Numbered from the stretch's first letter, positions 1,593-24,400 are shown. The stretch: DNA of 64,000 bases from Flectonema sp. DT1601 (GCA_964019425.1 OZ025792.1:1302001-1366000); one strand, 5' to 3'. Notes: a model not told the origin generated them from the letters alone. Translations and numbers: made by a program.

Positions 1593-3392
1593 TTATGCGG
1601 CAGAGGCCAGGTTGTTTGTTTTCATCTGAGCCATCTTCGCAGCATCAGCAGCCCCATCACCACAAGGAGTAATTCCGTAGTTCTTAACTAAGAAATCAAC
1701 CAGGTTTGGAGTTAAGAAAGCTGGAAGCTTTGGTCCAAGATGTATGTTCTTAATGTCAAGGTGAAGTAGTGTAAGAAGTACAGCTACTGCTTTCTGCTCA
1801 AACCAAGAGACTCCAAAGTGAATTGGTAAATCATTTACAGATCCAGCACCCAAGGCGTCTTTCAAAGCCAAGGCTACCCGGACTGCTCCGTAGGCGTCGT
1901 TACACTGACCGACATCGAGCATACGAGGGATGCCACTGTTCCCAATTTCTCCAAATGGAAGCTGATTAAATCTAAACTTACCACATCCAAGTGTTAATAT
2001 AACTGAGTCTTCAGGAGCAGACTGTGCTAGTTGAGTAAAGTAAGATCTGGTTGATTCTCTTCCATCACATCCTCCAATAACATAAAAGTTTTTAATATCA
2101 CCCGACTTGATAGCATCGACAACAACATCAGCCTTACTGATGATTGTATCGGCACCGAATCCAGTTGTCATCTTACCTTCTGGGTGGGATGCAACTCTCG
2201 AAGGAGAGAATCCATCACACTCTTTAGCAGACTTAATCACTTCAGTATAGTCCTCACCTTCAATATGACGAACTCCTGGCCAACCAACAACTGTTCTGGT
2301 GAATAGTCTTTTCTTGTAAACAGGTTTTGGTTCAATAATACAATTAGTTGTCATCACAATTGGACCTGGGAAGTTAGCGAAGTCTACTCTTTGCTTTTGC
2401 CAAGCACCACCGTAGTGACCCTTAAAGTGAGAATACTTCTGTAGTTCTGGATAACCATGAGCTGGTAACAGCTCTCCGTGGGAGTAGACGTTGATGCCGG
2501 TACCTTCAGTTTGCTTTAAGATGTTAGCAGTGTCGCGGATGTCATGACCAGATACTAAAATACACTTTCCCTCAACTGGATTAGTTGGAACATCCTTTGG
2601 AACTGGAATTCCGTATGAACTGATGTGAGCCTTTTCAAGAAGTGCCATAACCGCCAAGTTAATTTCACCAACTCTCAAAGCAACAGGAAGTAAAGACTCA
2701 ACAGATACTTTTGGTTGACAAATAGCAGACATCACTTCATGAAGACCAGCATAGGTCTCAGAGTCTTCAAAACCCTGAACAGCAGCGTGGTGATTGTATG
2801 CTGCCATACCCTTAGCTCCGTAAGTTATTAATTCAATCAAACTAAAAGTATCCTCATCTACACCAACAGATCTAGCGAGTACTCCAGCAACATCCTCACC
2901 AAGTTCAGTGAGAGTAGTAACATCGTCAACAGAGACCATCCAAGTTGCTGGAGAATTTGGGAATGCGTGCTTTTGACCCCCAACCGACTCGTACAGTTCT
3001 CTGGCTTTTGTACGAATTTGTTCGGCTTTTTTGATAAGCTCGTGGAATCTTTCAGAATCGTTGTTAACATTGGTCATAGTTGCGAAGAGCAGTTCTCCAA
3101 CAAAGACATCAATTTCAGAATCCTTTCCGTTAGTTGGGTCTAACTGTCTTGCAGCATGAGCGTACATACAAATACCCTTAGTGAGGTGAACAGAAACATC
3201 CTGCAGGACTGCTACCTTTGGTCTCTTTCCACACATTCCAATTCTATCACATCCACGTCCTGAGTTAGTTTGTTCGCACTGCATGCAGAACATGATCGGA
3301 TTCTGTTCTCTCATCTCAGCCAAATTCACACAAGTACGTCCCTGGGATCTGATTGCCGCCAAACGGGCTCCGGTTTGCATTGCGCGTCTCAT
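1593..3392 (-). CDS. hcp: Hybrid cluster protein (hydroxylamine/NO reductase, prismane), class I-type spacing, with a putative mitochondrial presequence
   Basis: N-terminal CMQCEQTNSGRGCDRIGMCGK (Cx2Cx8Cx5C cubane motif). Hybrid-cluster motifs SGHD, HGE, TTNC, GGCDG, LGCGK, GQCND and WFEQKA are present. Intronless. The start was moved to the ATG at 3392 (MRRAMQTGARLAAIRS) because the 20 upstream codons look like AT-rich UTR. Confidence 0.95.
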   Translation of the reverse strand: MRRAMQTGARLAAIRSQGRTCVNLAEMREQNPIMFCMQCEQTNSGRGCDRIGMCGKRPKVAVLQDVSVHLTKGICMYAHAARQLDPTNGKDSEIDVFVGELLFATMTNVNNDSERFHELIKKAEQIRTKARELYESVGGQKHAFPNSPATWMVSVDDVTTLTELGEDVAGVLARSVGVDEDTFSLIELITYGAKGMAAYNHHAAVQGFEDSETYAGLHEVMSAICQPKVSVESLLPVALRVGEINLAVMALLEKAHISSYGIPVPKDVPTNPVEGKCILVSGHDIRDTANILKQTEGTGINVYSHGELLPAHGYPELQKYSHFKGHYGGAWQKQRVDFANFPGPIVMTTNCIIEPKPVYKKRLFTRTVVGWPGVRHIEGEDYTEVIKSAKECDGFSPSRVASHPEGKMTTGFGADTIISKADVVVDAIKSGDIKNFYVIGGCDGRESTRSYFTQLAQSAPEDSVILTLGCGKFRFNQLPFGEIGNSGIPRMLDVGQCNDAYGAVRVALALKDALGAGSVNDLPIHFGVSWFEQKAVAVLLTLLHLDIKNIHLGPKLPAFLTPNLVDFLVKNYGITPCGDGAADAAKMAQMKTNNLASAA

Positions 3393-3710
3393 TGTTAGTG
3401 TTGAGTGTTGTTTATTAAGCTTTTCATTGAAATATTTTATAAAAAAAAACATAAACTACCCAACCAATAATACACCATGCGTACCTTATACAGTAAACCA
3501 TATACCTGACGGATGGGAATATAATGTACTAACGTAAAGCAATCACCACATCTAATTAATAATAATAATAATATCTAGGAAGTATTCTTTGAGTAAAGAA
3601 AGGCACTTGATGGCTGTAAAGCCATTCGTATGCGTAAAATTTAAACAAAAAAAAATAAATAAATAATAACCACACAGGAACTAACTAAAAGTTGAAAAAC
3701 AATAGAAATC

Positions 3711-6700
3711 TCAGGGTGTGGATAGATTTTGACCAATACTCATCATCGATAATGTTACTGAAGTAGTTTGCACAGATTCTTTAGAAGGTAAGAACGACGA
3801 GTCTACTGGAGTGTAGCTCAGTATCTCAATCTCTGAAACAGATAAAACCATATCGATATTCGTGATACTCGCAGTATTAGTCTTCCTAACAACAACAACA
3901 TTACCGTACATTGGAGATACTGGTTGTACTGAAATAACACTGGGACCTCCATCAACATTACCTGGGTTCTGAACAGTTGATGTCCATACAGTGAATGTAT
4001 TAAAAAGTATAGTGACTGAGATATCTCGTAGTCGGCTCTTACAACAATCTAATCTGTTATAAATATTTATTGAATGTAAATGCATTCCAACAGGTAACTG
4101 AATACTTATCCATGGTGATGTGTCTTGATTCGGAACCATACTTTCTGTCATTGTATATTCCAAGACATCAGTTGGGCAAACTTTTCTGTTAATTGCGATG
4201 GCTGCACTGCAAGTTTTACAACCGGCTGCGATTGAACTCTGATTTGTCTTTCCAACCCACGCGACATTATAAAGAAAAATATCATCGTCTGGTTCAAAGG
4301 GAGGATACTGAGGAGCAAAGACTGGTGGCAGTACTGGTGCCTGAACCACAGCAACCACAGGAGCAGGTGTACTAGCGACATCATAAGAGAATAGCTCCAC
4401 TTCAAGAATATTTAAAGTAAGGATCATACCGTGACCGGGGACGGGGATATTATTTTCTAAAAATTCTAAATTTTTGAATATTTTAACCTCGTCGGCGACT
4501 ATGAGAAGTTTACTGAAATCAGAACGGAGGTAGACTGGACCCCTGTCCTTGTCGTTAGGATTCAAAAGAGGAGATCTAAATATGACAACATCATCTCTGT
4601 ATGCGATGAACGTTATGTTAACAAAACGATTTCGACAACAATCAATTCTGTTAAAAACCATAATATCACGGAGAGCGTAAGGACGATCAAAACTTAAACT
4701 AAACCACGGATACTGATCAATTGGATTATCATAAGAAGATATAAAACAAGACCCATTTAAAGTCCGATCTCGATCAATCACACTCATCGGAGAACAACTA
4801 ACAGCAGGACAATTACTTGGTAAGCTCGACCAGCTTATACTTGACTGAGGTGCGATGTTTTGAGGTGTTTTTTGTTGTTGTCTTCTAACAAATATCCTCA
4901 TTGGTGGTGGAGTGTCTATTGTGTCATCAACAGCTTCGAATAATAATTTATACACCCCAGCCTTAACTGGATATATATAGTACGAACTACTTGTTTCATT
5001 CGGTGAGAACATGACCGTGTTCGGACTAACGACAACACCGCTCTCTGAAATAATATTAATAGTCACATTGCCTTCTATTGAGTCGCTTAAATTAGCAACA
5101 AACAATTCCCTTTCTCCCAGAAACACGTCATTCTTGCCATACATTGAAACCCATTCTCTACCACCACTGCTTAGAATTACTTTTTTAGGTGAAATGTTGC
5201 TATATTCTCCAACAGCTCCTTTTAGGATTATTTCTATTGGGATTTGATATAAGTGATGTCCTGAGTCGACAGCGAATAAAGGATCAGCAGCTGCAAACAC
5301 AACACTCACATTGCTTTGATTATTTATATCATTTGGGATTGTTATCGTTCGATTGGCAGTGATTCTGAAAGTTTGAATTCGAGTATCGTTGATCGAGAAT
5401 GTTAGTTTTTTTGGATAAAAATCAACTCCAGGAGCAAACAGCTCCACCGTTAATTTATTTCTTTTAGGAGGTGCTGATAACGTAATGGGGATCGGCTCAG
5501 ACAAGTCTTCAAAGTGTAAATGAGGAATCTCTCCAACGATAATATCCTCTGGCAGGTCTCTAGCCATTAGCATACAGACAGTGGCGAAGTTGTCTTGTTG
5601 TAGTCTGGACCAGGGTAACTTTAGTTCTGTTTGGTATATTAAAGAGCAAGACATATTTCCAGGTCTCCACGTATCATGAAGAACACCAACACAAAATGCT
5701 GTTTTTTCACATCGTTTTTTGCAATGAAGTAGTGGTATACCACAGCTGACTGGTTGTTTGCTCATTTTACAATCATCCCATTGTTGTGATGCTGGTTTGC
5801 ATATTCGATCAACACAGACTGTGAGACTATTCGGAAGACATCTACATCGTGATGTCCAGGGATCGACTTCTAGACCTATTTTATTATTATAAGTTTATAA
5901 TGTTTTGTAATATTACAAAACTGTTTTAAAATAATTAAAGCATACCATCATTACAATAAGATCCTGCAGCACCTTCAGGAAGGGATAAATCAACTACTTC
6001 CCCACATTCCATACCGTCAGTTACTAGTTGTGGTGAATATATAACCGTTTCGGTAACTAACTTTGGAGGTTCAATTGGTATAGCAACTTCTACAATGGAT
6101 TGTTCAACTGGTGGTTTTGAGGCTTCGACATCAATATCGATGTATAGCTGAGATATAATTATAAATCCGAATCTACGAAATGCCGAAGAACTAACAGCGT
6201 CACGACCAATATTCATATCGGAGTAGACTGCTGATGTCAGTCGTGAGATTGCATCGATGACTGATACTTCTGTTGGAAGGTTTAAAAACTGAAAGTAAAC
6301 ATTCACTGATCCACCCCAAACCTCCCAAACCAGAACTGAATAATCTGGTACAGCTGCTTCTACAGATATCGCTTCTATGAAAGGAGCTTCACGCCATAAA
6401 GATATGTCTCCCTCGAAAGATAAAAACATAACACTTGAGTTGTATGCTCCGTAAAGAGTAGCTTCAGGTGATTTCTGTCCCCTTGCAAATAAGAAGATGA
6501 ATATCATAACGATTGTCCCGACGAGTATAATTCCAAGTGCGATTCTCGCTCCTATCTTTGCTCTTCCAATACGACCACTTCGGACAGCTACTCTGTCTGA
6601 TATGATAGGCATGAATCCTCTGGTGTCTTGAAAATTGTCAGCTCGTTGCATCAAACCTTTTCCTACTCCAAGTGATTCTTTATTATAATTATCGATATCT

Positions 6701-6804: not shown

Positions 6805-9245
6805 TGATAAGGACTTCTTATTCTGTGGAAAAATTTAATAATAATATTTCAAAAAAAAAAAGATGTCGGAATTAATTATCGTCAGCAGAGTTATCTTTTC
6901 ATTTATCTTCCATCCTGTAGACAATAATAAAAGTAACTAAATAATAAAAATAATATCATTTCTGTCGCACAACTCACTAGCAACTTTTTTTTTTTTTTTT
7001 TTTTGCTACATCGTTGGAGGGGAAAAACAGTAATGTGATGTATCCTGTTTGCTTTACGGCTTTTTATCAAGTGCACTTCGTGGAGTAAATTACTGTGAGC
7101 TCCTCTCTCACCTTTATTGAACTTCTACTGATTGCAGAAGGTACCCAAAAAGGTCGGCATCAACGGGGGAAATAAAAAGCCAAAACAACGGTCCAGGGGG
7201 AGGGGTCGAAAAGGGCTTGGGAAATGTGGGTTACGAAGCCTTGTAAGAAAAGAAGATAAAGCGGCTGTTTCGTTCTTGGCATAGTTAAATTCGGATTGTT
7301 TCATTTTTTTTTTTCTCTCGCTTTCTTTCAGACTAATGGAATTCACATCAAATCAGGCAACAAGCTCTTAACGAGGTAGTTACCAAATTCGAATTGTGTA
7401 CTCACGAAGCTTGTTCTGCATTCGTTCTTTTCTATTGCCATTTATGCTGCATTGGAGGCCAGAAAGCACCCCAGGCATGAGGTCTGAATTTCGATTTTTT
7501 TTTTTTTTTTGAAAACTCTCTAGAGAGAAAAATACTACCGACTTCAAACTTTATAGACAGAAATTGTTTTACTACTAACAATCAATTAAAAAGAAAATTT
7601 GGGAAAGCTATTTTTATACAACAGGACCGGAACACGCAGACTGTCGCCAGAACAAGCCCAGGACCAACTGCATGCTGTATCATCGGAATTAAAGATCACT
7701 AGACGTTCTGTTTAGGGACTTATGAAGTTTTGCTCTGAAAAATGGAAAAAAGAAATTTTTTTTTTTTTTTTTTTTTTTATTCCTCTGTATGTTAACGCAT
7801 TTCTTAAAGTTTTCCGTTGAGCATGATGAACCAAAAACGTACGGGTTTGTTTTTTTTTTCTTGTTTTGTTTTTGTTTTTTTGTTTTTTCTTGACCTACAG
7901 ACCCCCTATTTGTAATAAATGAAATAACACCAAACGTGTCCAAGTCACTGCTGAGGAAAGGATCTGTGAAAACCATCACTGAGATGGATGCTGCTTATAG
8001 CAATCGAGTAATAAAATCACTTTAAAAGATTATTTTTTTTTAAAAGAAATTCGAACACAGAAGGAAGAAGTGAACCTCCCGAGTTGCCAAACATCATTTT
8101 CTGCAAAAGAAGCCAGACGGAGTCAAATAGGGGACACACAGAAATGTCCAAACGTGGGGGGAAAAGACACAAAAAAAAAAAAAAACACCAACGTGCAGGT
8201 TCTTGCAGGAAAATACTCATCAGTTTTCCCCAATAAGCTTTTTCTTAGGTAATATATCGGTAACAGCGAGAAGTGAAGTTGGCTTGACAACAACAGACAG
8301 AGTGGTCGGAGAACCAACCGAATGCGCAACCAACACCAAAGCAAAGTGCTGTCGAAAAGTAACGTAACGGAGTGAGGAAGAAAAGCCTTTAAAGGTTTTT
8401 TTTTAAATTTCTTCTTTCATTATTTCGTTCTACTGTTTGCTTTTTCTTTTTTTTTTTTTTGAAAATCGGCAGGCTGATCATCCTCTTAGCCGTGAATCCA
8501 TTACAACAGGTATCACTGCACTTTTCTTTTTTTGGTTTACTTTTTGTGCCTTGGAAGGAATAATAATAATTTAAAAAAAAAAAAAAAAAATTAAAAAAAA
8601 AAAAAAAGAAACATAATAATAATCAGACTAGTCAAAGTCAGCGGGTTTCCAAAATTTTCTTTTTTTTTTTCTTGTTTTTTTTTTTTTTTCTCTTGACCTT
8701 CTTCTTCCATTATTCCCCTGACGTGTCAAAAAAACAAAATTTTCAAATGATAGTTGCACGCCAACATCCGAAGTAAGATTCCATAAAAAGAACGATCAAA
8801 AAGTTCGTAACATAACGGACAGTTTTTTCTTTTTTTTTTTTTTTTTTTTTCCCCCGAGAAGGGGAATATGTATTTAAAAAGAGACGTAAGAAAAGGTATT
8901 CCGGGGTGGGATGGGACGTTGATGCCAACCATTGAGCTAACTGTATCCTTCGACTCTAAGCAACCAGTAACCTATAGTACTACCAGGGAGGTTCTTGATA
9001 GTGTAGTCAGCTGTATGCCATGCAGGTATGGAAGGGGGAATGGAGATTCACATCACAAGAAGAAAAAAAACTTTGGGCTGGGGGAAACATATCATAAAAG
9101 AAAAAGAAGTGGGGGGAAAGGAGCCCGAGTAAAACTATTGTGCAGCCAGCCTCGGCGAGTTCCAGCCGAAGGAATACTGGGCGAAAAGAAAAATTTCCAC
9201 ATAAAAAACAGCTTCCTCATAACAGAGGAACTGACGATTCGTCGC

Positions 9246-12200
9246 CTAGAGTTCAGCAGCCAAACGAGCTTCCAGCGTTGTCATCGTACGCAATTCAGAC
9301 TTCGATTGGGTAACCTTTGTTTTTCTTTGTCTTGGTGCATACATCGAGTGAACCTTGACATATACAGCACAGTTTCTTGACGTACGGAATGGCCAATCAT
9401 CTCCATCAGAAATAGGATGGTTGAGAAGAGACAACTGAACTTGTTCACTTGGTCCTTGGAACATATAAAAACTCTTAATGCAGCTTCTAAATTCGGCTAC
9501 GGAATTAAACTTTTCGGACTTTACGAAGTTGATAACCTTCCCGTCACCATCTGTGAAGTAAACATCTTCTGTCTGAAGATCATCAAATTCATTACGAGGG
9601 TCTAACTCCATCTCTTCAGGTGTTAGTGATGAGCTGCTGCTTTCTAGAACCATTGGACCATAAGCACCAGTGTTAAACCTGCTGATGTCACCTGCCTTTG
9701 CTTTTGGTGGTGGCCCGTGTTGTGGATTATGCCATCCATGAATAGGATTACTACCAGGTTCCATTTGTTGTCTTGACTTATTCCATGATGAGGTCAGACC
9801 CGATGGGGTCTTAGACAACCTTGCAGATAATTGTAAACCAGAAAACGAACGAGTGGCATCAGTGAATGATCCCTTTCTACTAGTAGCAGGAGGTGCTAAT
9901 AAAGTAGGAGATAGTAAGTCAGCAGGTGGTGGTGGTGGTGGAGGAGGAAGTGGTAATTCAGTAACAGACGCTCCAACTCCCTTTGAAGGACTCTCAATTA
10001 CGTTCATCATATTTACTCTGTTACCATTTACATTTGGATCAGTCACCTGACACATTTTATTACTAAACAATATTGGATCTGTGTTGGTACCAGCATCAGC
10101 TACTATTCTACCTAGACATTCATCTTCTTGAATCATGTTGGACTTGTCAGCGACGTAGGTGCTGTCAGTTGGGTTCTTTTTGTATTGTTGACCGTCTAAC
10201 AGCTCACCTAGGAATCGGAATCCTTCCTTTATTGATCTGAATATCAACATAATGATTCCGAATATGAATTGCATTAAACCAATCATGACTGCTAACAACT
10301 GTCTGGCTAATAGATAATAAGGAAATCCCCACATGTACCTCTCGTTGCTGTCACGTAGTAGAAGAACAAGACAACGTTCACGCTGGCTGTCTAACTCTCT
10401 TGATCCTTCTTCTAATATCCATTTCCTGTTTGTTATTTATTGTTATATCTGTTGTTGAAACTTTTAAAGAAGAAAAACAAATCAAAAATTGCATACTTTC
10501 TTCTCAAGATGTAAGGACCAAACGCAGCCCAGAAACTAAATTGGAGATCAATTGCCACGTGAAGTAGAGCGTATGTCATAACTATGGTTGGGTAGAATAT
10601 ATTGTCAACCTGTTTTGTTTTTATTATTGTGAAAAAATACACTTTAAGGTGGTTGATAGTTAAGATAAGACCAGAGTAATAAATACAAACCCGAATCATC
10701 TGAATGAGTCTGAAAATAATAAAAACGGCAATCCCTCCTCTAGCGACCAACGTCACCGGTCCGATGTTTGAGATAGTTAAGAAGTAGTCCCATGTCATAG
10801 CGAGTACCATGTAGAATACTTCCCAAGTAATATCCTGTTGTGAGTTTTTTTTTTTTTTTTTTTTTCCCTGTAGCAATAGCATTACGACAAAAGGGTATAA
10901 ATCACAAACCTGCCACAGGGAGAAGTATGCGAACAACCAAAGACCTGTCATACAACATGAGAACAGGAATCCAGTTGGAGTAGAACATCCTCTAAATCCT
11001 AAAATGATAGAAACCTTCCAATGATGTTTAAGAGAGTTAGATTTAACGATTGACTTGTCTTCAGTAGAGTCCTGAAACTCAACCTTGAACTCACGTCTAG
11101 TGTTGTGTAGAACAGTAAGAGCAGCCATCTTTTCAGCTTCGTCTTTCTTTGATAAGTATCCTCTACGTCCCTTTGTTAACTGATGCTGAATATGACGAAG
11201 TTCTCTATGACGAGCTCTGTTGATATCAACAACAGCTCTACCAATTCCGTAGTCAGCATGTCCAGCTTCTTCTCCATCAGCTTTGTGATAACAAACAACA
11301 AATTGAACGAAATCAATTTCACGTAATCCTAACCCAAGAAGAAGTTCCTGACAGTCTCTATCCTCAACGACCTTTCCGAGCATTATGAAACCCTTTTGCA
11401 TTGTCTTCCAGTCAATTGTTTTTGCTGGTGATCTGTCTGGTAGTATCGCTCCAACAATTGGAGTTCCATTTAAAGACTTAAACACCTTGAGGAACTTTTC
11501 GAGTTCGGCTTTTTGCTTTTCAATTTTACAAAGCCAGTCGTAGTCAAGATCCATCTCTTCGAGTTCTTTGGTCTTTTCAGTTTCAGCAACAGTAGCAGTG
11601 TCGGCCTTTAGTCGTTGTGTTAATAAAGTTTTACCACCGTCCATTGATGAAGGACCTAGTCGATCACCTCTTGCAGTTCTGTAACCAGCAGCTGTTCCTC
11701 TAGCGTTATTTAATCTATCGATTGTTAAGACTGGAACATTCGACGGTCTGTCGTGTGATGCTGAGGCATCTTCTCTTCTTGATTCTCCAAACAGAGAACC
11801 ACTGCTCTCAGTAGAATCCTCAATAGGTGTACTTGCATAAGTGCTATTACGCATTAAACCATGCGCTGTATGTTTGTTCTGACCTCTCTTCTGCTTACCA
11901 GATCCTGCCACAGATAAGACATGCTCTGATTGCTCTCTTCTAATACCTTCTAACATCTGCATTGAACCAGCTCCTGAAGTTTCACTTTCGGCACCCATCG
12001 AAGCGTTCTGTGTTTTGTGTTTATTTATTGGGTTTTGCTGTTTCGATATAAAACAATGTGAGCACTGCATCAAAAAAAAAAGTTTTTTAAAAAAAGAACT
12101 ACATACGTGGGTTCTGACTCCCTTTGTACGTGCATTAGACTTTGCTCTGGACATGTCACCCTTTGGACCGCTGGAGTGAGCATCGCTGCCAAAGCCGTGG

Positions 12201-15200
12201 AGGCCGCTGTCTCCAAAGTTTCCAGTCATAGGCATAGTTGGGTCTCCTAAAGTAGATGAAGTATCAAGAGGCCACACAGGTGGTGGAGCAACACTACCAG
12301 GTGGTGAGTGCGATGGAGGACCAGCCGGTGGTAGTAGCGGCATTTCTGAAGCCAACGAGTCAGACTGATCTCCACCTGAATTTAGAGACAGTTGTTGCAT
12401 TGGCATATCAATAACATCAATTGGTATGTCATCATCACCAGCAACTGGTGGTGGTGGTAAACCCATTGATAAGTGTTCAGGTGATCCTAAACTATCATCC
12501 ATTTCAATCATCTGCATTCCTAAAGGAGGTCCACCAGATGGTGGAGGTGGTAAATTAGTTGGCATCATCATCTCAATCTCTTCACTTGAACTATCATCCA
12601 TACGAGGCATACCATGCTCTTGATACCTGTTGTTTGTTTCTTAGGATATTTTATAACTTTAACTTGATAACATCATAAAGAAGTAATTACACACCTGTTT
12701 GGAAGGGTTCCAAAGTTGACGGGTTCTAAGTCCTCATCATCTTCGTCCCAATCATCGTGACCGCCGGAGCCATCAGGGACACCTGAAAATCCGCCGCCTC
12801 CAAAGAATGTTCTTGGAAGGACTACAGCGTCCATTTCATCACTGTAAGTGTCGCTTTCTCCTTCAGCTCCTCCGAATTGATTTCCAAATTGACCTCCGAA
12901 TTGTAACTTACACTGTCCTTCAAGAGTGTCAGAATCACCATCACCAGTGTACTCGGTCTCGTAGTGGAATTTCCTGCTGTGTCCATCGTCGGTGTCTCCA
13001 CCTGGACCCTTGTGGTGCTTACGAACGAGTTGCTCGTATGCCTTTTCCCATTGCTTGTCTTTCTTTGATTGAACTTTGTTCTTTGTTAAGACATCGACCT
13101 GTTTCTTTAAACGTTCGATCTTGTCTCCGAATACCCACAAGTAGTACTGTTTTAAGTCAGCCCAGAGACCTTCTAATGAGATTGCAGGGTTGAAGACACA
13201 AGGAGTTACGATAAGTGAAATACCAACACCCCAATGCCAGAATGTTCTCCACAAAGATGCTTCAGGTGTTTTTGTTTCAATATCCATGTAAAGCCAGACA
13301 ATCATAAATAAAAGCATTCCAGGCATGAAGTGAGTTGATCCATAGTATCTAAACATATGTCTGAATGATCTTCTGAACAGAGGATCTGTTCTACCAGTCG
13401 CAATGTAAGCAGCGGATCCGTTCAAAGAACTCTGCATGAAATATGAGAATCTTGTCATAATTACAAACAAGAAGTACAACGTTGCAGGAAGCACATCCCA
13501 AATAAAAGCAATAACACCAGTGAAACCATAGTCAAGAGTAAGTTGCAAAAACAAAGGAACAGTTTCAATCAAGGACATTTGAACCATCCATTCAGCTCCA
13601 TACGGTGATCCTCTACTAGCTAAAGCGTAATCAGTTTTGTAACTATAAGTCAAAGCGATATTAATAAACAACGTGGTGTAGATTAATATAACGATCGTGA
13701 TCAAATAAATGTAAGGACCAACAGATCCATAAAAGATTGAATGTCTTCTTAAAATATCCGATGTTCTCATTAACTCAAATTGATCTCTTGTTCTGTACTG
13801 CATAGAAGCTCCGAATGCAAGCTTCATTTGAAAACCGTTGGCTCCATCAAAGTTAGTTTCACGTCCCTTTCCATCTCTCATGCAGTCAACGTGTTCAACA
13901 GATTCACCTGATCCTGTGACGTGAAAACCGGCGAAAATATCTTCGTTAAGATTGATAAGAGGGTTCGACTTAGACATACCACCTTGCGTTGCACACCATG
14001 AGAAGTCAAAAAAATCGGGGTGACCGTAATGCATTCTCACTCGTAGTGGTCTAGCTAACACCTTTTGAAACAAGTTAACGAAGATATATTCAGAGTAACC
14101 AGCAATACGTCCAATGATACCTGAACGAACAGTAATAGAGTATTCAGGGAAACCAACAATCTTGTAACGCGACCATTTCCTGTCGGAGGTTGGGAAGAAT
14201 TTGCCCAAAACTGATCGGAGTTTCAAAGCCTCATCAAAGTATCCATCCTGGTTAGCATCAATTGCTTGAATCAGTTGATTCTTTGCGAACATTAAACTGT
14301 GAGCCTGATTGCAAGCCTTACCTTGCATGAGACCGTTGAGTCCAAACTTTGCTTTCTTTTCAAGACGAAGAGGGTTACGTCTGGCGTAGGCAGATGAGAC
14401 AAACCAATCACCGTGTACTAGTCGATCATCATCTTCTGTTTCACTGTCGTCAGCTGGTACCCAACAAGCAAGACACGATAAGTATTTTGTGCAATCCCAC
14501 AATCCAGATACGTGATCGTGAACCTTGCGAACTACATCAGGACTGTTTCTGTAGTTGAGAGTATCGACAACAAAGGTTACTTCAACTTTAGGATACTTGT
14601 CCCATAAATACATTAATCCGTCTTTATTCTTACTGTACCACTTGTTGTTTGCAAGATTCTGAAGACACAATAAGATTTGAAACTTATCATCCGTTAAGAA
14701 CATCATCTTATCTAATCTCGTCTTCTCAGTACGAGTGTACTCCTGTTCAAGTTGTAAGAGGAATTGGAATGCCTCTCGTTTCTTTTCCATTCCTCGGACA
14801 GTACGAGCAACTGTTTGCATGTGGAGTGAAGCCCACCACTGGATTGATACAGTCTCGTAGTCGCTGAACAAATGAGGTAAGGTGTGGATTTTATCAGAAA
14901 TAAGATCAGCAGCAGTGTACCTGAGGAGTTTGTCTCCTCTCATGTCTCGACGCTTCTTCTCATCTGTTTCCTCTTTCATGTCTTTAAGATCCTTAAAGAT
15001 TTGTGAAATCTGTTCATCAGTCAGAATATCTTCAAAGAAACCCTCAAACAGAACACAATGCTCAACAAAGTTAACCCACTCGTCATGGTAGCACTCAATT
15101 AGGAATCTGAGTTGTGTTTTTTCTTGTTGATGGGATCGGATTTTCTCGTTAAACGCACCGTCTTTACCAGCAGCAGGACACATGATATCTTCACCATAGA

Positions 15201-18200
15201 CTGGAATAACAATAGTCACACTAGGGTATGTAGAACATGGACCCAGCTCTTCATTTTCGACACTTTGAATGTACTCAAGGAAGTTACTAAGACGTTCCAT
15301 GGCAAAGACGTTCTTCAACTGAAATTGAACTTCAGAAACGTGAACGTGAATCAACAGGTTCTCATATTCAAAAGCAGACAGCAGCCACTCGTCCCACATT
15401 TCTCTGATCACTTTATTCCACACTTTACGAGCAACAGAAGTATCTCTTGGATCCGTAAACCCAAGAAGCTTTACGTTCAGTGTTCGCAGAATGTAGGCAG
15501 TTTGAATCTTTTTACCAACCATAGAACGTGACTTTCTGGACGTCCATTGGTTGGAGAAGTGAGAAAATGAACCGAAGAGAACGGTCCACACTAAGAAACC
15601 AGCGTTAACAACAACAATAAACATCGCTAATGATGAAATCCAAATTAAAAGGACGGCAACAAAACAACGAGGTTCTTCATTGGCACATTGGAACTTCCTT
15701 GCAAGGAAATCATGAGTGAACTCCGTCACACCACGTTGAGTAATTCCTGAATAGTCGTCATCACAGTCACAGAATGACCAATTAATAACTTCTGTTCTAA
15801 ACATGACCCATGCTTGGAATATCTGAACAGATGCGTATGTCAGCGCCCAGAACAAAACACTTCCCAAGAATTGTGATATAACTCCCTTTTGAGTGAACTT
15901 TTGACCGTTTCGAGGAGCACCACGCAACTTCAACGGATAAGCAATAAGAATCATATTGTTGACTACAATACCAAATATTCTTATTAAGACGTAGATTAAG
16001 ATAATTTCAAGTGGAGCAGCGTTAATGTCTCCGAATAACGTGTTCCTCATTAGACACATAAATGCGATAACTGAGGTGTAGGCTGACCACCTAAGTTTGA
16101 AATAATCACGTCTTGAGATACGACCATGAGTGGGTGCCCAATCTTCAGGTGTCCAGTGGTAGTAACCGCCTTGCATCCATACGTCTAATATCTCACCAAT
16201 AAGAACTAACCAGAAGTCAACCTTTGCTGTAGTTGTTAGAACCCAGGCAAACTCATCAGGTCTGTGGAAGAATACTAATTCTATTCTGTCGAACATTGCA
16301 GATATTCCTTGGTCAACAAGCTTTGCACTACCTCTTGATACGTTGGTTACAAATGCCCAGAATATGAATGAAATGATCTGCGTGTGTACAATAAAATACA
16401 CGTTATGAATGACCGAGAAGATTATACCCCAACGACGAGGTTCGCGAAAGGTTTTTCTGAATGGATAACGTTCGATCTCTACCATGTTGTAACTGTCATC
16501 GTCAAACTTGAGTACATTCGCACCCTCATCTACACCCTTAGTCCCGGTAATGTCAAAGTACTTTGTCATCACACATGATTCTGTGATGTCGTCCATTGTT
16601 ACTGTACGACGTTCAAAATGACGAGGGTCGTTGAGGACAGTTGTTGGAGGGAATTTCATGTGTCTCTGCACGTAGTGAAATACCCAGGCCAGCCAATGGC
16701 CGTTGAACCAGGTCATTTGCTCACCGAGATGCCAAAGTGAAAGGACGACTAATAAATCAATTACCTTATCGTTTGTTGATTCTCCCAGACCACGACGAAC
16801 TCTTCTGTAGGCAGATCCGATAGGAGCATCTTCACCTTCTACACGATGGCTATCAAGTACTTGTGCGACGTCTCTTGTTGGTGATTCTAACGGGTCGATT
16901 ACTAATTCGTATTCTCTGAATTTATGAGTGAATGGAATAACAATCATTTCGTCTTCATCAACGTTGGCGCTCTCATTCCAAACTCGTTCTACTTCTTCAT
17001 TCATATCAGCGCTCATTGGAGGGAAGATTGGATCTTCTTCTGATCCAAATTGTAATTCCCATCGAACATGTTCACAGTCTCCAAGTTCAGCACCTGCTTT
17101 TTCTTGTGCATCATACCAACCCATGTAAGAGTTCATGTAACGAGCGTGAAGTGAGTCTACTGCTGTTGCGAAACCCTTTAAGTGTTCGCCAACATCCTCG
17201 TAGTCACCTGGTTTGGTTTTGTTGGATATGTTTTGTTATTATTATTTTATCCATTAGAAAGTAAATTAAATAAAAACACAATACCTGACTTAATCTGACA
17301 AAGCATCTCATCAAATATTAAACGTTGCAAGTGATCGAGTTGAATAATTACAACTTGCCAACGAGAGAATTCCCAGGAATCTACTTCGACGTCATCGTCG
17401 TCAGAGAATTCGTCTTCTTCGAGATCGCGACTGACATTCATTCCTTCGAATGGTGCTTGATCAAGTACTGTTGCAGTACCTGTAGTGATGATTTCATAAA
17501 TCTCATCAGTGTCTGCCTGAACCCATCTTGGACGGTCTTTTTCATCTTGCAGAACATCAAAGAACTCTTCTGCCTGAATCTCATCTTGACAACAAACAAA
17601 TATCGTCAACAGAATACAAGCAACGGCTACAACAGCTGTTCCTACTCCCAAGAATATCCACATCGATTCTGGAAGTGAAACAAATACACAGCTAACCAAT
17701 TGATCATCAGCTAACAGTTGTCCATTAAAGATCTCAGCCAACGTGAAGTACGCATCTTTATGACGCAAGCAATGTTTAAACCATGTTTGGTATTGAGCAT
17801 TTATTCCCATATACTCAGATGTGAGCATTCCATCATAAAACTCAGCTACACGAACACCACAAACAGAGTGACGAAGTCTAGAAGGGTCAGGACAATCGAA
17901 ATCAGGATCTGAAGCCTCACCTCTCCAATACTGATCAACCCATTCAGTAATAGTAACACCAGAAAGAAGTTGTCTTGGGTGTAATGGCAAAGCTCTGGTG
18001 ATTTGAACTCTTAAATAAGATGCGTGTGCTGGTTCATCTTCTACTTCCTGGACATGATTCCATGAGTCGGATTCATAATTTAAAATAATCGGATGATTTA
18101 AATATGTAATCGTCTCCGTCAGTCTCTCTACGTTTACTTCTAAAGTTGTTAAGATAGCAGCCTCAACTGCGAGATCATATAGTGTTTTATCAACCGCAAG

Positions 18201-21084
18201 TTGTGGTGCTGTGAACTCTGTCAGCGGGATGATAATTGGTCTCCTGAATGGATCCAAGTGATCCCTCAACAGTCGAAGCTTTCTAAGTAATACGTAGTAG
18301 TCGTAGGCGTTTCTATCAATGTTTCGTAATGCGGTGCTATCAATAGACCACATGACAATATTGTCATGAGGAGATAAATACTCCAACATCTGAGTAAAGT
18401 CTTCCTCAGCAAGAAACTTTTCAGTCCTAAACCCGCCTCCAGGTAACACCTGAGCAACGATAACATTTATATCTAATTGTTTGCATTCCATCAAAAACGG
18501 TTCAACAGTAAAGAAATCAGTTGAAATTTTTACAGTATTAAAACCCATCGCTTTAATATTTCTTAAATCTCTTCTCAGAATGGTTGAATACTGAGTCATG
18601 TCGTAGATGTTACTGGTGGAGACCTTATTACCAATCAAGGTTGGTTGATAATCCATTACTTTAAAAAAGTAATTAAAAGAATCGTTGTACCATATCGTCG
18701 ATCCCAAAATACGAATTGGTAGTCTGTAGTCAGCTGCACAAACAGCATTCGGGGACAAGGACTGTAATTCTTCTAAGTCTCCAACACGTGTGTCAAGACC
18801 ATTAAATCTGTATGTGAGATCTTCAGCGATGACTAGTTTTTTGTGAACTTCAAGTGCCTCCATAGGATTAATAAGTGATAAAAGCATTATATCAAAAGGA
18901 GTATCAGTCGGTTTTAAAATTAAATCTTGCTGATTAGGCCATTCTACCTCAGCCAACCATGAGTCTTCACGAGCAACATATCTCGCGACCTCTCTGTCAA
19001 AGTGGGAACTAAAAGCTCTATCAAAAGGTGCAATAGTTGTGAAATTTAAACTGAATTTTGTTTCAGTTGCAGTGAATCCACTTCCGACTACACCAGCAGA
19101 AGCATCGGCTTTGTACTTCGTTGCTTGGTACCAGTAGGTATCAACTCCGAATGATTGCCAAGAGAGTAAAAGCTGACCGGTGATTATCATAAGTGGCTCC
19201 TGAACAAAGTTTTGACCACCCAGAATTGCAACGGCTGCGTAACCCATCATATCTGTTCCTGGTGGTGAAGTTCGTCTTCCAAGTAGTTGAGTGCCAGGTT
19301 GAACACCAGTGTCACCCCAACCTAAGAATGTGTAAAAATCGAAATTTCTAGCAACTGGAAAAAATTCATCTTCCTCGGATAAATTTGCTATATCTCTTAT
19401 TAAAAACCTCGCTAGTCTAGCCAAGTTATTAGCAAGACGAACTCTGCTAGTTTCTGCTTCATTTGCGAGAAGCTTTGGCCACATTCTCGCCAATCCCATC
19501 AGAATTTCAGAATAGTGTTCTCCGTGACCAATACCCCAACAGGTCTCGTGAGTACCACCAGTTGAATATGTAGTACAGACAGTACCCCAGTTAGATTCAT
19601 AAAATAAAACACCGTTAAGAAGTTCATTCACCCAAGTTCTCGCGTATGTTATTAAGTTAGAGTACTGACTGCTAGCTGCTAGGTTTGATGCTGTCTCTAA
19701 CATTAAAGAAATGTGATAGACTTGTAATCCATATTCATACTTGAAGTCATCACCAGTAAGGATCGTAGCATTACCAAGTCTAGCCATATCATCTAATAAA
19801 GCATTAAACTGTTGTACTTGAGTACACAATTGTCTTCTTTCTCTTGTGAGTGCGGTAGTGTTTGGTGCTATTGCTGGAACGTTGAAGATCCATTGTCTAC
19901 CTACAGCAGCTTGAAGCTCACCAAGCAATGAGTCATACTTTAAGTTATAAGTTAAAAACACATTCGATAAATCAGCAATTCTATGATGAGGAAGAGACAT
20001 CATGATAGGATTACAAGTCGGGGGTTCGGTTCTCCAGGTAAAAATGGTTTCAATTTTCTGGTCTGGTTGTAATTCCGGGTTCAAAGGATCAGGGACGGTG
20101 TGATTATGAGAAACAGCACCACCAATAACAATACAACTAGCTCTACTTTGAAGGGTATCAAAGTACTCATGAGCAAGATTACCTGCAGTACTTTGATGAT
20201 TACGTACCTCAACTGGAACATGCGACACTCGTATCGCTCCATTAACATTTTCCTGAATTGTTACTCTACCGTCTGAAAAAACCTCAATTGTTAAAACAGA
20301 CGGCAACGATATCAACCATCTATCACCAGCCTTGTCTGTGAGATCAATATACTCTCCGACGAAAGGAAGAGATCCACCATCCGGAATATCAATACGAGAT
20401 AGCTTAGCAACCCCAGCTGATATAAAGACTGACATCAATCGATTATTCGCTACAACAGTAGAATAAGGATGTCCCCTAGCTAACAAGATCGATCCCAAAG
20501 CATCACGCTCCGTGCGAGTGTTGTCATTCACAGTAAGATTCACTCCAAACCTATCGTGATCTGCAACATGAGGAAAGCATCCAACGGTGTCTCTAAACGA
20601 GACTTGCACTCCGATTTTAAATACTTCGTATGTGTGAGATGGGTCGCTTGCGTTTACCTGTTATGTTTGTTGTTTTATCGAATTCATTCTTGATTCTTTA
20701 TTCTTTTTACCAACACAGTAAGAAATAGATTTCATAAATACATACCACAGGTGCCATCTTTGATACTTCCAGAGAGCAGGTGTGCCAAGCTGCGCGCACC
20801 ATCAAAGGATATTGTGAAACGACAGCTGTCGTTAAATTGTGTAAGACCATATCCATCCACCAAGCATTGGTAGGCGGGGCTCTTCCAGATCTTACTTGAG
20901 ACGTACGAGACTTAAACATTGTAATTGGGTATCCAGTCAGGTTAGAAAACGCATCTATCGCGTTTGCTTCTAATCCGAGAGGCTGGATGTCATCACCGAA
21001 TAACGGAGCTACTATAACCTGATCAGGTCTATCAACTACTTGACCATAGCTAATTGCTACAAATGCCAACACCAGTAACCACAT
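9246..21084 (-). CDS. Giant beta-1,3-glucan (paramylon/callose-type) synthase, GT48, fused to N-terminal GH81-like and clan GH-A TIM-barrel-like domains; 8 exons, 3759 aa
   Basis: Exons 21084-20746, 20657-17285, 17207-12695, 12626-12107, 12007-10910, 10834-10691, 10609-10497 and 10425-9246 total 11280 nt. All introns are GT-AG and preserve frame. Signal peptide MWLLVLAFVAISYG. GT48 motifs QGKACNQAH, IQAIDANQDGYFDEALKLRSVL, RMHYGHPDFFD, GGMSKS..INLNEDIFAG and GKGRE. GH81-like motifs PPTNAWW, LPHH and LIRDIAN....FFPVARNFDFY. Confidence 0.9.
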
Positions 21085-22345
21085 TGCAGACTCCAAACCA
21101 GGTCGAGGCGTTGCCTGACCTGGAAATGCAATAAATAAACGACTGGTGTGATCCTGTGAGGAGTAAGTAAATATAAACACCAATAGAATGATGGACTCTA
21201 ATTAAAAATACTACATTCATTTGACATAACTGCGTGCATATGTTCCATTTCTGCGAAATTAAAGTGTGTTTTTATTTATTGTGCATTGTGAAAATCCTTA
21301 TGTGGGCTTATTTATTCATCAGCTATTTTTTTTTTTTAAAAAGTTTTTTTTTTTTTTTTTTTTTTTCCTTTCATTTTTTATTTGTGGTCCCCCCACTGAC
21401 ACCACCCCTTTTGAATGCTTTTTCCTTTTTTTTTTTTTTTTTTTGTGATATTTTGTTTTGTTTCATTTCGTTCAGACTTCTGGGATGCATTACGTTCCTT
21501 TCTTTTGAAAAAAAATGATATGGGGTATCCCTTCCGCATTCGGGTGGGGAAGGGGGGAGGGTGGGGGGAATCACAACAAGTCTCAGCATTTAGTTGTCAA
21601 GGTATACAGCTGAATTGATCTAGGAAACAACAAACAGTTGAAAAATAAAAATAAGGGGTGGGGTATCTTAATAATGATAAAACAATAAGGAGAAGTCGCT
21701 GCTAGTTGTTACTTCATTTTAGTAGCTATATTCTCCATAAATATGATAAGCAATCCCAGAAACCGAAGAAATGATGTAAGGAAGCCTTTTTTTTTTTTTT
21801 TTTTTTTGTGGTTTTCTTTCTAAATTTTGCTTTTTCAAATTTTTTTTTTCCGTAATAAAATAGGGTGGGGAAGGGGGAGGGGTCGTAAAACATTTGAGAA
21901 ATTCTTGTTTTGCCAAACAAATTTAAGTCGGCACTGATGTAAGGTAAAAAACACTATGAAATACGTGATATTTTAGCTAAAAGGCAACAGGTACGTTATT
22001 TCGCTTTTAAGGTATCACTGAAAGGAATTTTCAAAAAAAAAAAAAAAAAAATGAAAGAGGGCGATTGAGGGGCGGGAGAAGAGAAAAAGAAAATAGAAAA
22101 AAAAATAATGAATAGAAAGGGAGGGAACTTTTGATCACCAATCGCTTTATGCATTCAAGAATGAGGGGAAAAATCGAATCCTGCTTTTGAAAAAATAAGT
22201 AGAACTTGCACTTATTTCTTTTCCCCTTCTTTCTTAATTTTTTTTTTTTTTTGGCACAAAAAGGGAATGTAACAAGAGCACACTGCACTCCCTGTACAAA
22301 CACTTCAAAATGTATTCTTGTGGGCAGATGGAAAAGGCAGTAGGC

Positions 22346-24064
22346 TTATTTCTTCTCCTTTTTGGCCTTCTTCTCCTTCTTTTCCTTCTTCTCCTTCTTC
22401 TTCTTCTTGTCAGGCTTTGGGTCGGCTTCTTCGTCCTGTTTGATAGTTGAGTTGTTTCGTAATATTAGAACGTTGTCATTAAAACATTAATGAGGTAATT
22501 AATTATCTAAGCAATTTGAAACTGGACCAGTAGTTAATTGAAATATAAATAAAAACATACACGGCCTCTCTTCTGCTTTTCCTTCTCACCAGCGCCAGAC
22601 TTCTTCAGCTCAGACTTGAATGACTTAAGAGCGTCTTCCATTGCCTTGACGTTGGTCATTGGTTGATGCTTTCTCTCCTCGTAGTAGTTAAGTCTGTCAT
22701 CAACTTGGTCCTTCAACTTTTCACCAAATACTCTGGTTGGAGTCTCTCCAAACATATCGATTCTGCAGGCAATGGATGCCTTGTTGGCCAAGTATCTTGA
22801 AATACGTCCCTTGTTCTTTCCCTTAGCACGTCCGATGAACGAAGTGTTGTAGATAATTCCGTACTTTGGGGTGTTTCCACGCTGCTTCAGGGCTCTGAAT
22901 TGTTATTAATTTGACAGAAAATGTTTTTTTCTAAAGAAAGAAATTCATAAACTAAACGAGAGACTACATACCTGAAGAGCGCCTTCTCAGCTCCCAAAAT
23001 CTGAACAGTTGAGGCAGGGTACTTGGCCAAGTTGATGAGGGAACCAGCGTGTGCGATAAGTCTGTATTGTAGTAATTGGTGTTGCCATATTTTGGATAAA
23101 AAGCAAATGGAAAACCCAAACAAAGAATAAAAACATACTTAGCGGCAATAGTGTCTCCCATCAAAGATCCCAAGTTGGGTGAGACAGCAGCGACCTTGTT
23201 CTTGAGGTACTCGGAAGAGATGCTACGGAGCTCCATCAGATTCTTCAAACGAAGAGCGAAGGACTCCAAGTGAACCATGTCAACTTCAGACATGGCACCT
23301 CCCATTGAGACCTTTGACATGGCAAGTACTTGAGCTGCCAAGTCGTCGTCATTTACAATTTCAACAATCTTTGGAAGGATGTCATCGGAAATGTTTTCCT
23401 TGTGACGGAGCAAGTGAACCAACCTACAGAACTGTTCAGCGTCAACAACCATCTTTGTAAGTTCTGGGAAATGCCATCCGTACCATTCCTTGAGTCTCAT
23501 GTTGAAAGTGTTGATATCCTTATCAAGCTTTTCAGTGATAGCAATAGCCTGGATAATCATATTATCAGCTCTGTTAACATTGAACTTAACCTTACATCTA
23601 CTGTAAGAGTGAGCAAGACCAAGGTAAGCTCTTTCTAAGTCTCCCTCTTTCAATCTAGGGACCAACTTCTCAACGTGAAGACGGCACATTCTCTGCATCT
23701 CGTAAATGTGTTCGTTGGCAACACATGGAATTCCAAGGTTGGATTTAATAGCTGAACCCATAGTGCTTTCTATAACTCCGAGTTCGAACTTGTCCTTCTT
23801 GGATGGGAGGGTGTCCTGAAGGAAGGCAGCCAAGAATTGGGTTACCTGACCTTCCGAAAGGGCGTTGATGTTCTCAAGAGCAGCTTCTGAGTCACGGAAA
23901 GGTGCAAAACTGACATAGCTGACGACCTTCTTGAATCGGCCGATGTCCTGCCAAGACTTCTGTATCTCCAAGTCCTCGGCACCAATCTCCTCTCCTTCTT
24001 CCTTCTTGAAGAGAGCGTAACCCGCTGAAGTCTCGTGGAGTAAGTATAATTTCTTACCTCCCAT
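22346..24064 (-). CDS. NOP56: Box C/D snoRNP protein Nop56; 4 exons, 479 aa
   Basis: Motifs [68 protein letters not shown] and NTPKYG, plus a KKE-repeat tail. Introns 23138-23062, 22971-22895 and 22560-22436 restore the frame. The NRxDNMIIQ motif favours Nop56 over Nop58. Confidence 0.95.
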
Positions 24065-24400
24065 TTTGAATGTAGGTGTTCACCTGTTGTAATAATAATT
24101 TATTATTCTTTTCCCTTTCAACAATACATCTATCTTACGTGTCCCGCGGGACCAGACTGCCAATGTGATTAAATAAATCCGACAACTAAAGTAATGTAAA
24201 GCTACACCTCTAGTTATTTTCATTGTCACTATTCCTGGGGTGACAAAGTCAACGATGTGTTGACAAAGTTCCAAAGACAGAACTAATCAATCAACAAAAT
24301 TAAACAATTGAAACTGCCTTGTCACCATCTTACCTACATCGTCATTACTATAAGTGACAGTAAGCACCTGAAAGTAACGAATATCACAACACGGATATCG

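Follow-up and report, generated by a model that had tools for sequence, protein, structure and literature searches.

Yeast Fks1, a synthase of family GT48, has 1,876 residues, is without an ectodomain and is activated by Rho1 (PMC10499315; here and below, statements cited by PMC number are limited to the accessible text of each paper or supplement). In Euglena gracilis, glucan synthase-like 2 was reported to be essential for paramylon (cited in PMC6530250 and PMC8219788), which is deposited as a triple-helical crystalline granule inside a membrane (PMC6530250), and the diplonemid Diplonema papillatum also makes paramylon (PMC10161547, PMC8611851). The step from single GT48 chains to a crystalline granule of triple helices is left unexplained in the literature covered. 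Here we describe a gene of Flectonema sp. DT1601, located at positions 9246..21084 on the minus strand of a 64,000-nucleotide stretch (OZ025792.1:1302001-1366000, analysed as a whole and called the window), which has 8 exons and encodes a protein of 3,759 amino acids, supported by a continuous spliced frame and by colinear orthologues. It puts two disarmed, diplonemid-conserved folds of the kind that recognise beta-1,3-glucan at the predicted exit of the synthase. We suggest, at about even chances, that its product is a paramylon synthase with non-catalytic luminal glucan guides, which would bind and steer the emerging chain.

The fusion of GH81 with GT48 is already on record in one diplonemid. 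Protein DIPPA_09258 of D. papillatum (3,893 amino acids) is labelled "GH81-GT48" in supplementary file 3 of PMC10161547, whose accessible main text mentions neither GT48 nor GH81, and by its length we equated it with KAJ9444635.1 (3,893 amino acids), called "putative callose synthase 8" in NCBI. KAJ9444635.1 is an orthologue of the window protein with the same modules in the same order, and is 59% identical to it over residues 14-2664 and 44% over residues 2845-3756. The record consists of the label only, and the barrel, the catalytic losses, the EF-hand lobe and the tail are not described in its searchable text. Literature text searches returned no account of the architecture, the second barrel or the catalytic losses, and the fusion was not seen in the accessible text of PMC7965971, PMC8219788, PMC6260743, PMC5745450, PMC6630311, PMC5827456 or PMC7052976. 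No protein named as Euglena was among the homologue matches looked up. What sets the diplonemid clade apart is the double disarmed ectodomain rather than the fusion itself. Compared to Fks1, the window protein is twice as long and adds a signal peptide, two pseudo-glycosidase domains, an extra transmembrane (TM) helix, a long insert with an EF-hand lobe, and a tail, while the glycosyltransferase (GT) domain and the TM helices following it are alike in the yeast Fks1/Gsc2 structures (PDB 7XE4, 7YUY, 9WZS).

Gene structure and diplonemid relatives

Five long stop-to-stop frames span the locus on the minus strand, the strand of all features given below unless stated otherwise. They are connected by seven short introns, giving exons 21084-20746, 20657-17285, 17207-12695, 12626-12107, 12007-10910, 10834-10691, 10609-10497 and 10425-9246, with the start at an ATG at 21084 and the stop at a TAG ending at 9246. 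The spliced length is exactly 11,280 nucleotides, or 3,759 amino acids and a single stop, in agreement with the original prediction that seven GT-AG introns fuse five open reading frames (ORFs) into one protein of this size, and the gene model corrects database ORF calls that split the locus. All seven introns have GT..CAG ends, are 68-99 nucleotides long and contain 21-29% G+C, compared to 41.6% in exons. A premature stop would result if intron 1 (20658..20745, 88 nucleotides), 2 (17208..17284, 77 nucleotides), 3 (12627..12694, 68 nucleotides) or 7 (10426..10496, 71 nucleotides) were kept in the transcript. Intron 1 is further supported by splice signals, composition and orthologue alignment, and intron 7 by orthologue alignment; intron 2, which links the ectodomain exon with the GT48 exon, has a junction that is ungapped in 7 of 8 orthologues, and conserved motifs flank intron 3 on both sides. 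Since introns 4 (12008..12106, 99 nucleotides), 5 (10835..10909, 75 nucleotides) and 6 (10610..10690, 81 nucleotides) are in frame and free of stops, the frame alone is no proof of them. Orthologue alignment crosses the junctions of introns 5 and 6 without insertion in all rows having the region, 6 out of 8, the other two being ENA gene calls that are out of frame there. Intron 4, the least proven, was called by signals and composition and sits in an unconserved stretch; the protein would have 3,792 amino acids if it were retained. A plus-strand ORF at 8811-9377, which overlaps the stop codon, had no Pfam match and was treated as spurious.

Searching longer proteins with exon 2 gave 8 matches from 6,146 candidates, 3,264-4,552 amino acids in length. 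All of them carry the ectodomain and GT48 (Glucan_synthase) in one chain, and five are ORFs of Trinity transcripts. Their named sources are Diplonema japonicum, D. papillatum, Lacrimia lanifica, Rhynchopus euleeides, R. humris (a cluster member), Artemidia motanka and Namystynia karyoxenos, and the transcript ORF of D. japonicum aligns as one high-scoring segment pair over residues 10-3755 with 54% identity. Twelve module profiles occurred in identical order in the six complete clade members scanned, barring the N-terminal part of GH81 in one ORF that is short at its 5′ end; the Sulcionema specki member stops after the GT48 core. Because colinear full-length orthologues exist, most of them from diplonemid transcriptomes, the locus is, as judged from sequence comparison, one gene that is conserved in diplonemids. 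The original prediction had proposed a comparison with diplonemid orthologues, and in that comparison the full architecture proved to be colinear and conserved.

That the frames are instead separate trans-spliced genes of a polycistronic cluster is scarcely credible. All long genes seen in the window do lie on one strand, and exons 2 and 3 are entered in databases as two different ORFs (P0010, P0066), but single transcript-derived ORFs of 3,264-4,552 amino acids run colinearly across the junctions, the gaps measure only 68-99 nucleotides, and their 3′ ends are A/C-rich, unlike the pyrimidine-rich tracts before the AG sites upstream of the start codon. The last 36 nucleotides of the cis-introns contain 64-89% A+C and 3-28% T, with no pyrimidine tract (e.g., 17208-17243). 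The upstream AG sites, at 21154 and 21120, come after pyrimidine-rich tracts and are likely spliced-leader sites by this sequence context, and the contrast between A/C-rich and pyrimidine-rich sequence may be how cis and trans sites are distinguished. A/C-rich CAG acceptors were also observed at other genes of the window, where a simple scan fires on the other strand too (24 vs 30 sites).

A quick tree of the GT region, from which P0004 (a near-duplicate of P0009) and P0021 (without the motif) were omitted, placed the window protein inside a first diplonemid clade with a Shimodaira-Hasegawa-like approximate likelihood ratio test (SH-aLRT) value of 99, which makes a diplonemid the most probable source organism. 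As it is a quick tree, with long branches meeting at Papus and the outgroups, it was used only for the two diplonemid clades and the place of the window protein. The second diplonemid clade (P0011, P0012, P0060, P0068, P0069, P0070 and P0074) has the same apparently dead ectodomain, and the two paralogous clades coexist in Rhynchopus, Namystynia and Sulcionema. P0011, P0012, P0068, P0069 and P0070 are 3,295-6,125 amino acids in length, with clade members reaching 6,360 amino acids, and P0011 and P0012 were observed to have very long tails that are repetitive and Pro/Trp-rich, or helical. A homologue was also found in the free-living kinetoplastid Papus ankaliazontas (P0013, 2,959 amino acids), with the layout GH81-barrel-TM-GT48 and about 260 additional N-terminal residues. 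In P0021 of Namystynia and P0072 (an ENA record), GT48 sequence is fused to GH158-like barrels that keep the catalytic motifs; P0072 apparently has two tandem barrels, the first of which is N-terminally shortened, and its GT48 falls outside the diplonemid clades. Diplonemids thus have at least three GT48 types, namely this clade, the second clade fused to GH81, and P0021, in which the GH158-like domain is intact. Searching with the GT48 N-terminal part among proteins of 826-2,631 amino acids found only the locus itself (1 of 2,472), which is weak evidence of absence since shorter relatives, for instance the GSL proteins of Euglena, were not reached.

Synthase core and ectodomain folds

The Fks1-like GT48 synthase (13120..17399, residues ~1200-2600, spanning intron 2) is built in the order of N-terminal cytosolic part, TM bundle, GT domain, and TM bundle. 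Exon 3 matched Pfam PF02364 (Glucan_synthase) with E=2.4e-87 and 294.4 bits, compared to a curated cut-off of 37.2, and the solved structures of yeast Fks1/Gsc2 were matched with E=1.6e-33, while the Pfam search found no FKS1_dom1 in the window protein. Hydrophobic segments at residues 1498-1771 and 2404-2582 flank the GT domain, and the second bundle aligns to Fks1. Among the Fks1 active-site residues named in PMC10499315, 14 fall in the alignment and 12 are identical, including D1102/N1104, H1195, N1220/E1221/D1222, K1246/R1248 and K1261. The counterpart of N1220-E1221-D1222 is N2325-E2326-D2327 (13939..13947), which is present in all 17 fusions including Papus; five GT48 motifs were likewise found in 17 of 17, and a sixth in 16. 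Identity to 6 orthologues is highest in the GT domain (64-79%), followed by the barrel (55-66%), the GH81 part (33-44%) and the insert (21-39%). From these alignments, the synthase core looks intact.

The part preceding the synthase begins with a likely signal peptide (21043..21084, residues 1-14), a hydrophobic N-terminus that has similar counterparts in full-length homologues, and ends at a single TM helix (17589..17660, residues ~1113-1136, hydropathy 2.7) that lies between ectodomain and synthase and is present in the orthologues. N-glycosylation sequons are enriched in the first 1,120 residues, at 0.71-1.96 per 100 residues compared to 0.03-0.42 in the rest, and this was the case in all 6 proteins counted. 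Based on the hydrophobic N-terminus, the one TM helix and the excess of sequons, we placed the ectodomain outside the cytosol; it is predicted to be luminal, on the side where the GT48 product emerges.

The distal ectodomain (18762..20967, residues ~40-745, spanning intron 1) is GH81-like. It matched Pfam GH81C with E=2e-10 and 40.9 bits against a cut-off of 25.6, solved GH81 enzymes were also matched by sequence, and the first 14 Foldseek rows were GH81 (E 1e-13 to 1e-10, from a low-confidence model). The domain is alike in sequence and fold to the endo-beta-1,3-glucanases RmLam81A (4K35), CtLam81A (6FOP) and BhGH81 (5T49), and differs from them in that the Asp/Glu/Glu triad is replaced, the catalytic domain has diverged over its last third, and the whole is fused to a synthase. 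We take the catalytic residues of RmLam81A to be D475, E553 and E557, an assignment that none of the papers searched confirmed; in the alignment they coincide with the motifs NDHH and QESxxE, where the window protein has G490, S577 and T581. The complete triad occurs in none of the 16 diplonemid fusions, with P0070 keeping only the Asp and P0069 only the first Glu, while Papus P0013 keeps all three residues. Across the fusions these positions are occupied by many different residues. Of 60 columns with an identity of at least 85% across 25 free GH81 proteins, 50 are retained in Papus and 38 in the window protein, and many of the lost ones belong to the two active-site motifs. The GH81 fold therefore looks catalytically dead in diplonemids, as far as aligned residues can tell.

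The membrane-proximal ectodomain (17712..18734, residues 755-1095) is a (beta/alpha)8 barrel of clan GH-A, as indicated by structure matches and by free-standing homologues. Its model (model residues 654-983), the predicted secondary structure of which fits such a barrel, gave Z scores of 16.9-14.5 over 230-270 residues, with a best root-mean-square deviation (rmsd) of 3.7 over 268 aligned residues. GH157 (16.5), GH72 (16.1) and GH158 (15.2, or 1.7 below the top) were tied with GH5 and GH2, and because these structural scores fail to separate the five families we kept the label GH158/GH157-like. When the barrel itself was searched against solved sequences, no match came in under E=0.6. Free-standing homologues carry Pfam matches to GH2_C and GH72, and for one of them the best solved relative is GH158(Pro) with E=1.2e-13. 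The barrel can be placed beside the beta-1,3-glucan enzymes of GH158, GH157 and GH72, and its free relatives appear closest to GH158; the nearest described systems are GH158(Pro) (9ORO) and BuGH158 (6PAL), followed by the clan neighbours GH157 (9FZ9) and GH72 (Gas2, Gel4). It differs from GH158 by replacement of both catalytic glutamates and of two stacking aromatics, and no Ig-like domain follows it, there being a Cys-rich loop and the TM anchor instead.

Catalytic positions of the barrel were mapped via the free homologue P0056 onto GH158(Pro), whose catalytic residues are Glu143 and Glu229 (PMC13195107); the two glutamates aligned in the free homologue lie 86 residues apart, as do those of the enzyme. 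In the window protein the acid/base position is T888, the preceding Asn is S887, and the nucleophile position is N973. The nucleophile Glu is missing in all 17 fusions, Papus included, and the acid/base Glu in 16 of 17, being kept by P0070 and replaced by Asp in four; Ser takes the place of the preceding Asn in all 17, and no fusion keeps both glutamates. The alignment has a one-residue gap at the nucleophile, and only 2 of the 17 have Glu at the nearby position of E975. Conservation of this barrel is close to that of the synthase TM bundles and well above that of the insert, and its conserved aromatics include W883, W979 and W1024. It looks catalytically dead, yet appears to be kept under selection.

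One or both folds might still act as a glucanase or transglucosylase through other acidic residues, in order to trim, release or splice chains, but we consider this very improbable. Conserved residues of the barrel include D977, E1018 and D1021, and E975 follows the nucleophile position by two residues; however, D977 and D1021 cannot be regarded as replacements because homologues with both glutamates conserve them just as well, E975 varies among the fusions as described above, and so do the residues at the GH81 catalytic positions. An enzymatic version does exist in the family, given the complete GH81 triad of Papus and the intact GH158-like barrels that P0021 and P0072 carry on GT48. The family therefore offers a natural series, in which GH81 is intact in Papus, GH158-like barrels are intact in P0021 and P0072, and both folds appear dead here. 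The order of signal peptide, GH81-like domain, GH-A barrel, TM helix and FKS1/GT48 domain in the original prediction was supported by the matches above, with the luminal side assigned by prediction. Its further proposal of a luminal product-handling module stands as far as a predicted luminal ectodomain is concerned but is very improbable in its enzymatic sense, since the catalytic residues of both folds are gone; any product handling would thus most likely be non-enzymatic.

Possible role of the disarmed folds

In the proposed mechanism, the cytosolic GT domain would add glucose from UDP-glucose and thread the chain through a TM channel, as suggested by the match to Fks1. The signal peptide, TM anchor and sequon enrichment would put the ectodomain on the side where the chain leaves, inside the granule vesicle, where hydrolysis is unlikely because neither fold keeps its catalytic pair or triad in the alignments. 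The membrane-proximal GH158-like barrel and the distal GH81-like domain would instead form a glucan-binding collar that holds the synthase on the growing granule and favours assembly of triple helices and microfibrils. Both the EF-hand lobe and the domain at the C-terminus would serve as sites of interaction in the cytosol, with no calcium control implied. The guide reading is supported by the fact that the parent families of both folds act on beta-1,3-glucan, and the GH81 enzyme of Bacillus halodurans is reported to bind three intertwined chains resembling a triple helix (PMC8949617, PMC7915573). As D. papillatum is genetically tractable (PMC8611851) and has the orthologue, the question of a guide is open to domain deletion. 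A stronger version, which is tentative and on balance unlikely, is that the two former glucanases act as a built-in crystallisation chaperone, winding extruded chains into triple helices; here the barrel would have died in the common ancestor with Papus, and GH81 would have been disarmed only in diplonemids. If true, such a chaperone would do for beta-1,3-glucan, within a single chain, what accessory proteins do in ordering cellulose.

Several observations weigh against a paramylon synthase with glucan guides. Two of the aligned Fks1 active-site residues are changed, D1080 to Q2199 and K1172 to S2276, and mutating either residue in Fks1 blocks complementation (PMC10499315). In the GH81 part, other residues take the places of the Tyr, His and Tyr that surround the catalytic Asp, and none of the 16 diplonemid fusions matches the final third of the catalytic profile (positions ~225-340). 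In the barrel, two of the four stacking aromatics of GH158(Pro), Trp77 and Phe278, correspond to Ser and Thr1017 according to the two-step alignment. The structure model of the ectodomain is poor, with a mean predicted local distance difference test (pLDDT) score of 47.8. Additionally, the orthologue in D. papillatum is expressed at a level close to the median of the genome (1.33 vs 1.25), and that species also has a GT48 paralogue of 5,525 amino acids (both from the supplement of PMC10161547).

The losses in the grooves bear on another possibility, that the synthase works as described while its dead ectodomain no longer touches glucan and has become a scaffold for folding, trafficking, oligomerisation or partner binding, for example by clustering synthases or by pairing the two diplonemid paralogues. 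We think this doubtful, and it was given weight because some groove aromatics have been lost too. Aromatics and His residues of the groove went along with the catalytic residues, the GH81 part is conserved at only 33-44%, and the two clades with the same ectodomain coexist in three genera, all of which would fit a scaffold. Against it, the Cys-rich loop and residues at the ends of the barrel strands recur in catalytically intact homologues (e.g., Y-x-P, MW, D977, D-x-x-W), and both folds derive from beta-1,3-glucan enzymes and lie where a beta-1,3-glucan synthase is predicted to release its chain.

The product, rather than the ectodomain, could also differ from that of the guide reading, if the protein made a surface, cyst or secreted beta-1,3-glucan at the plasma membrane and another GT48 made paramylon. 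We regard this as decidedly unlikely, although the presence of at least three GT48 types in diplonemids, the modest expression in D. papillatum, and the wall glucan made by fungal and plant GT48 enzymes would agree with it. Paramylon is the beta-1,3-glucan reported for D. papillatum (PMC10161547, PMC8611851), Euglena paramylon needs a GT48-type gene (cited in PMC6530250), and the accessible table of carbohydrate-active enzymes lists just two GT48 genes for D. papillatum, including this orthologue.

C-terminal modules and neighbouring genes

The synthase is followed by a low-complexity insert rich in Pro, Gly and acidic residues (11573..13062, residues ~2620-3060), which spans introns 3 and 4. 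Next to it is a degenerate EF-hand lobe (11261..11527, residues ~3076-3164), recognised from its model and from matches of centrin/calmodulin type. The model has four helices and matched centrin with Z 8.3 and an rmsd of 2.4 over 72 residues, in a match list dominated by EF-hand proteins; a Z near 8 is modest for a helical domain, the Foldseek E values were only 0.04-0.17, and the pLDDT was 59.6. Paralogue P0068 has a weak Pfam EF-hand match, while none was found in exon 5 at E up to 1. By inspection, the loops are not canonical 12-residue acidic calcium loops, the first being enlarged and the second shortened. The original description of this part as EF-hand-like is therefore upheld for the paired helix-loop-helix fold and not for canonical calcium loops.

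A distal TM cluster (10191..11020, residues ~3245-3445, spanning introns 5-7) was detected by hydropathy and is 47-61% identical to its orthologues. By position, the C-terminal TM part of GT48, which corresponds to Fks1 after ~1510, could have been displaced to this place. Comparison of the cluster with three ordinary GT48 C-termini, which was underpowered, gave an hhalign probability of 0.9% and hmmsearch scores below shuffles, and a full-length profile comparison with Fks1 gave no significant match. Behind a Pro/Ser-rich linker (9591..10028, residues ~3500-3645), the protein ends with a small domain (9336..9578, residues ~3650-3730) that is conserved in orthologues and is possibly a beta-grasp (ubiquitin-like) fold. 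This domain had no Pfam match; its Atlas leads were weak at 0.83-0.87, under the mark of 0.9, and included Rad60-SLD, Ubiquitin_GT-1, CIDE-N and GRHL1_C at 0.83-0.86. With a weak ubiquitin-like call and no canonical calcium loops, the cytosolic regulatory modules of the original prediction are tentative. Papus P0013, whose ORF may be incomplete, is without the EF-hand lobe, the distal TM cluster and the last domain.

Every long gene seen in the window is encoded on the minus strand, the arrangement that a polycistronic cluster would be expected to have. The neighbours include a Nop56/58-like gene at 22967-24079, genes with SAM, WD40, CBS and SET domains, kinases, and GWT1, and none of the Pfam-annotated neighbours in the window points to glucan metabolism. 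A galactose-binding-like domain was observed in the gene at 3714-5894. An intronless ORF of 1,866 amino acids at 44950-50547 on the minus strand, with G+C above its surroundings, has a signal peptide, many near-identical Cys-rich repeats, Pro/Thr linkers and one C-terminal TM helix. It has no convincing Pfam family, and by this layout it looks like a surface or adhesion protein. At 1596-3455, also on the minus strand, we found a Prismane / hybrid-cluster protein (E=8.9e-145), a type that is mostly prokaryotic and anaerobic, and its N-terminus resembles a mitochondrial targeting peptide.

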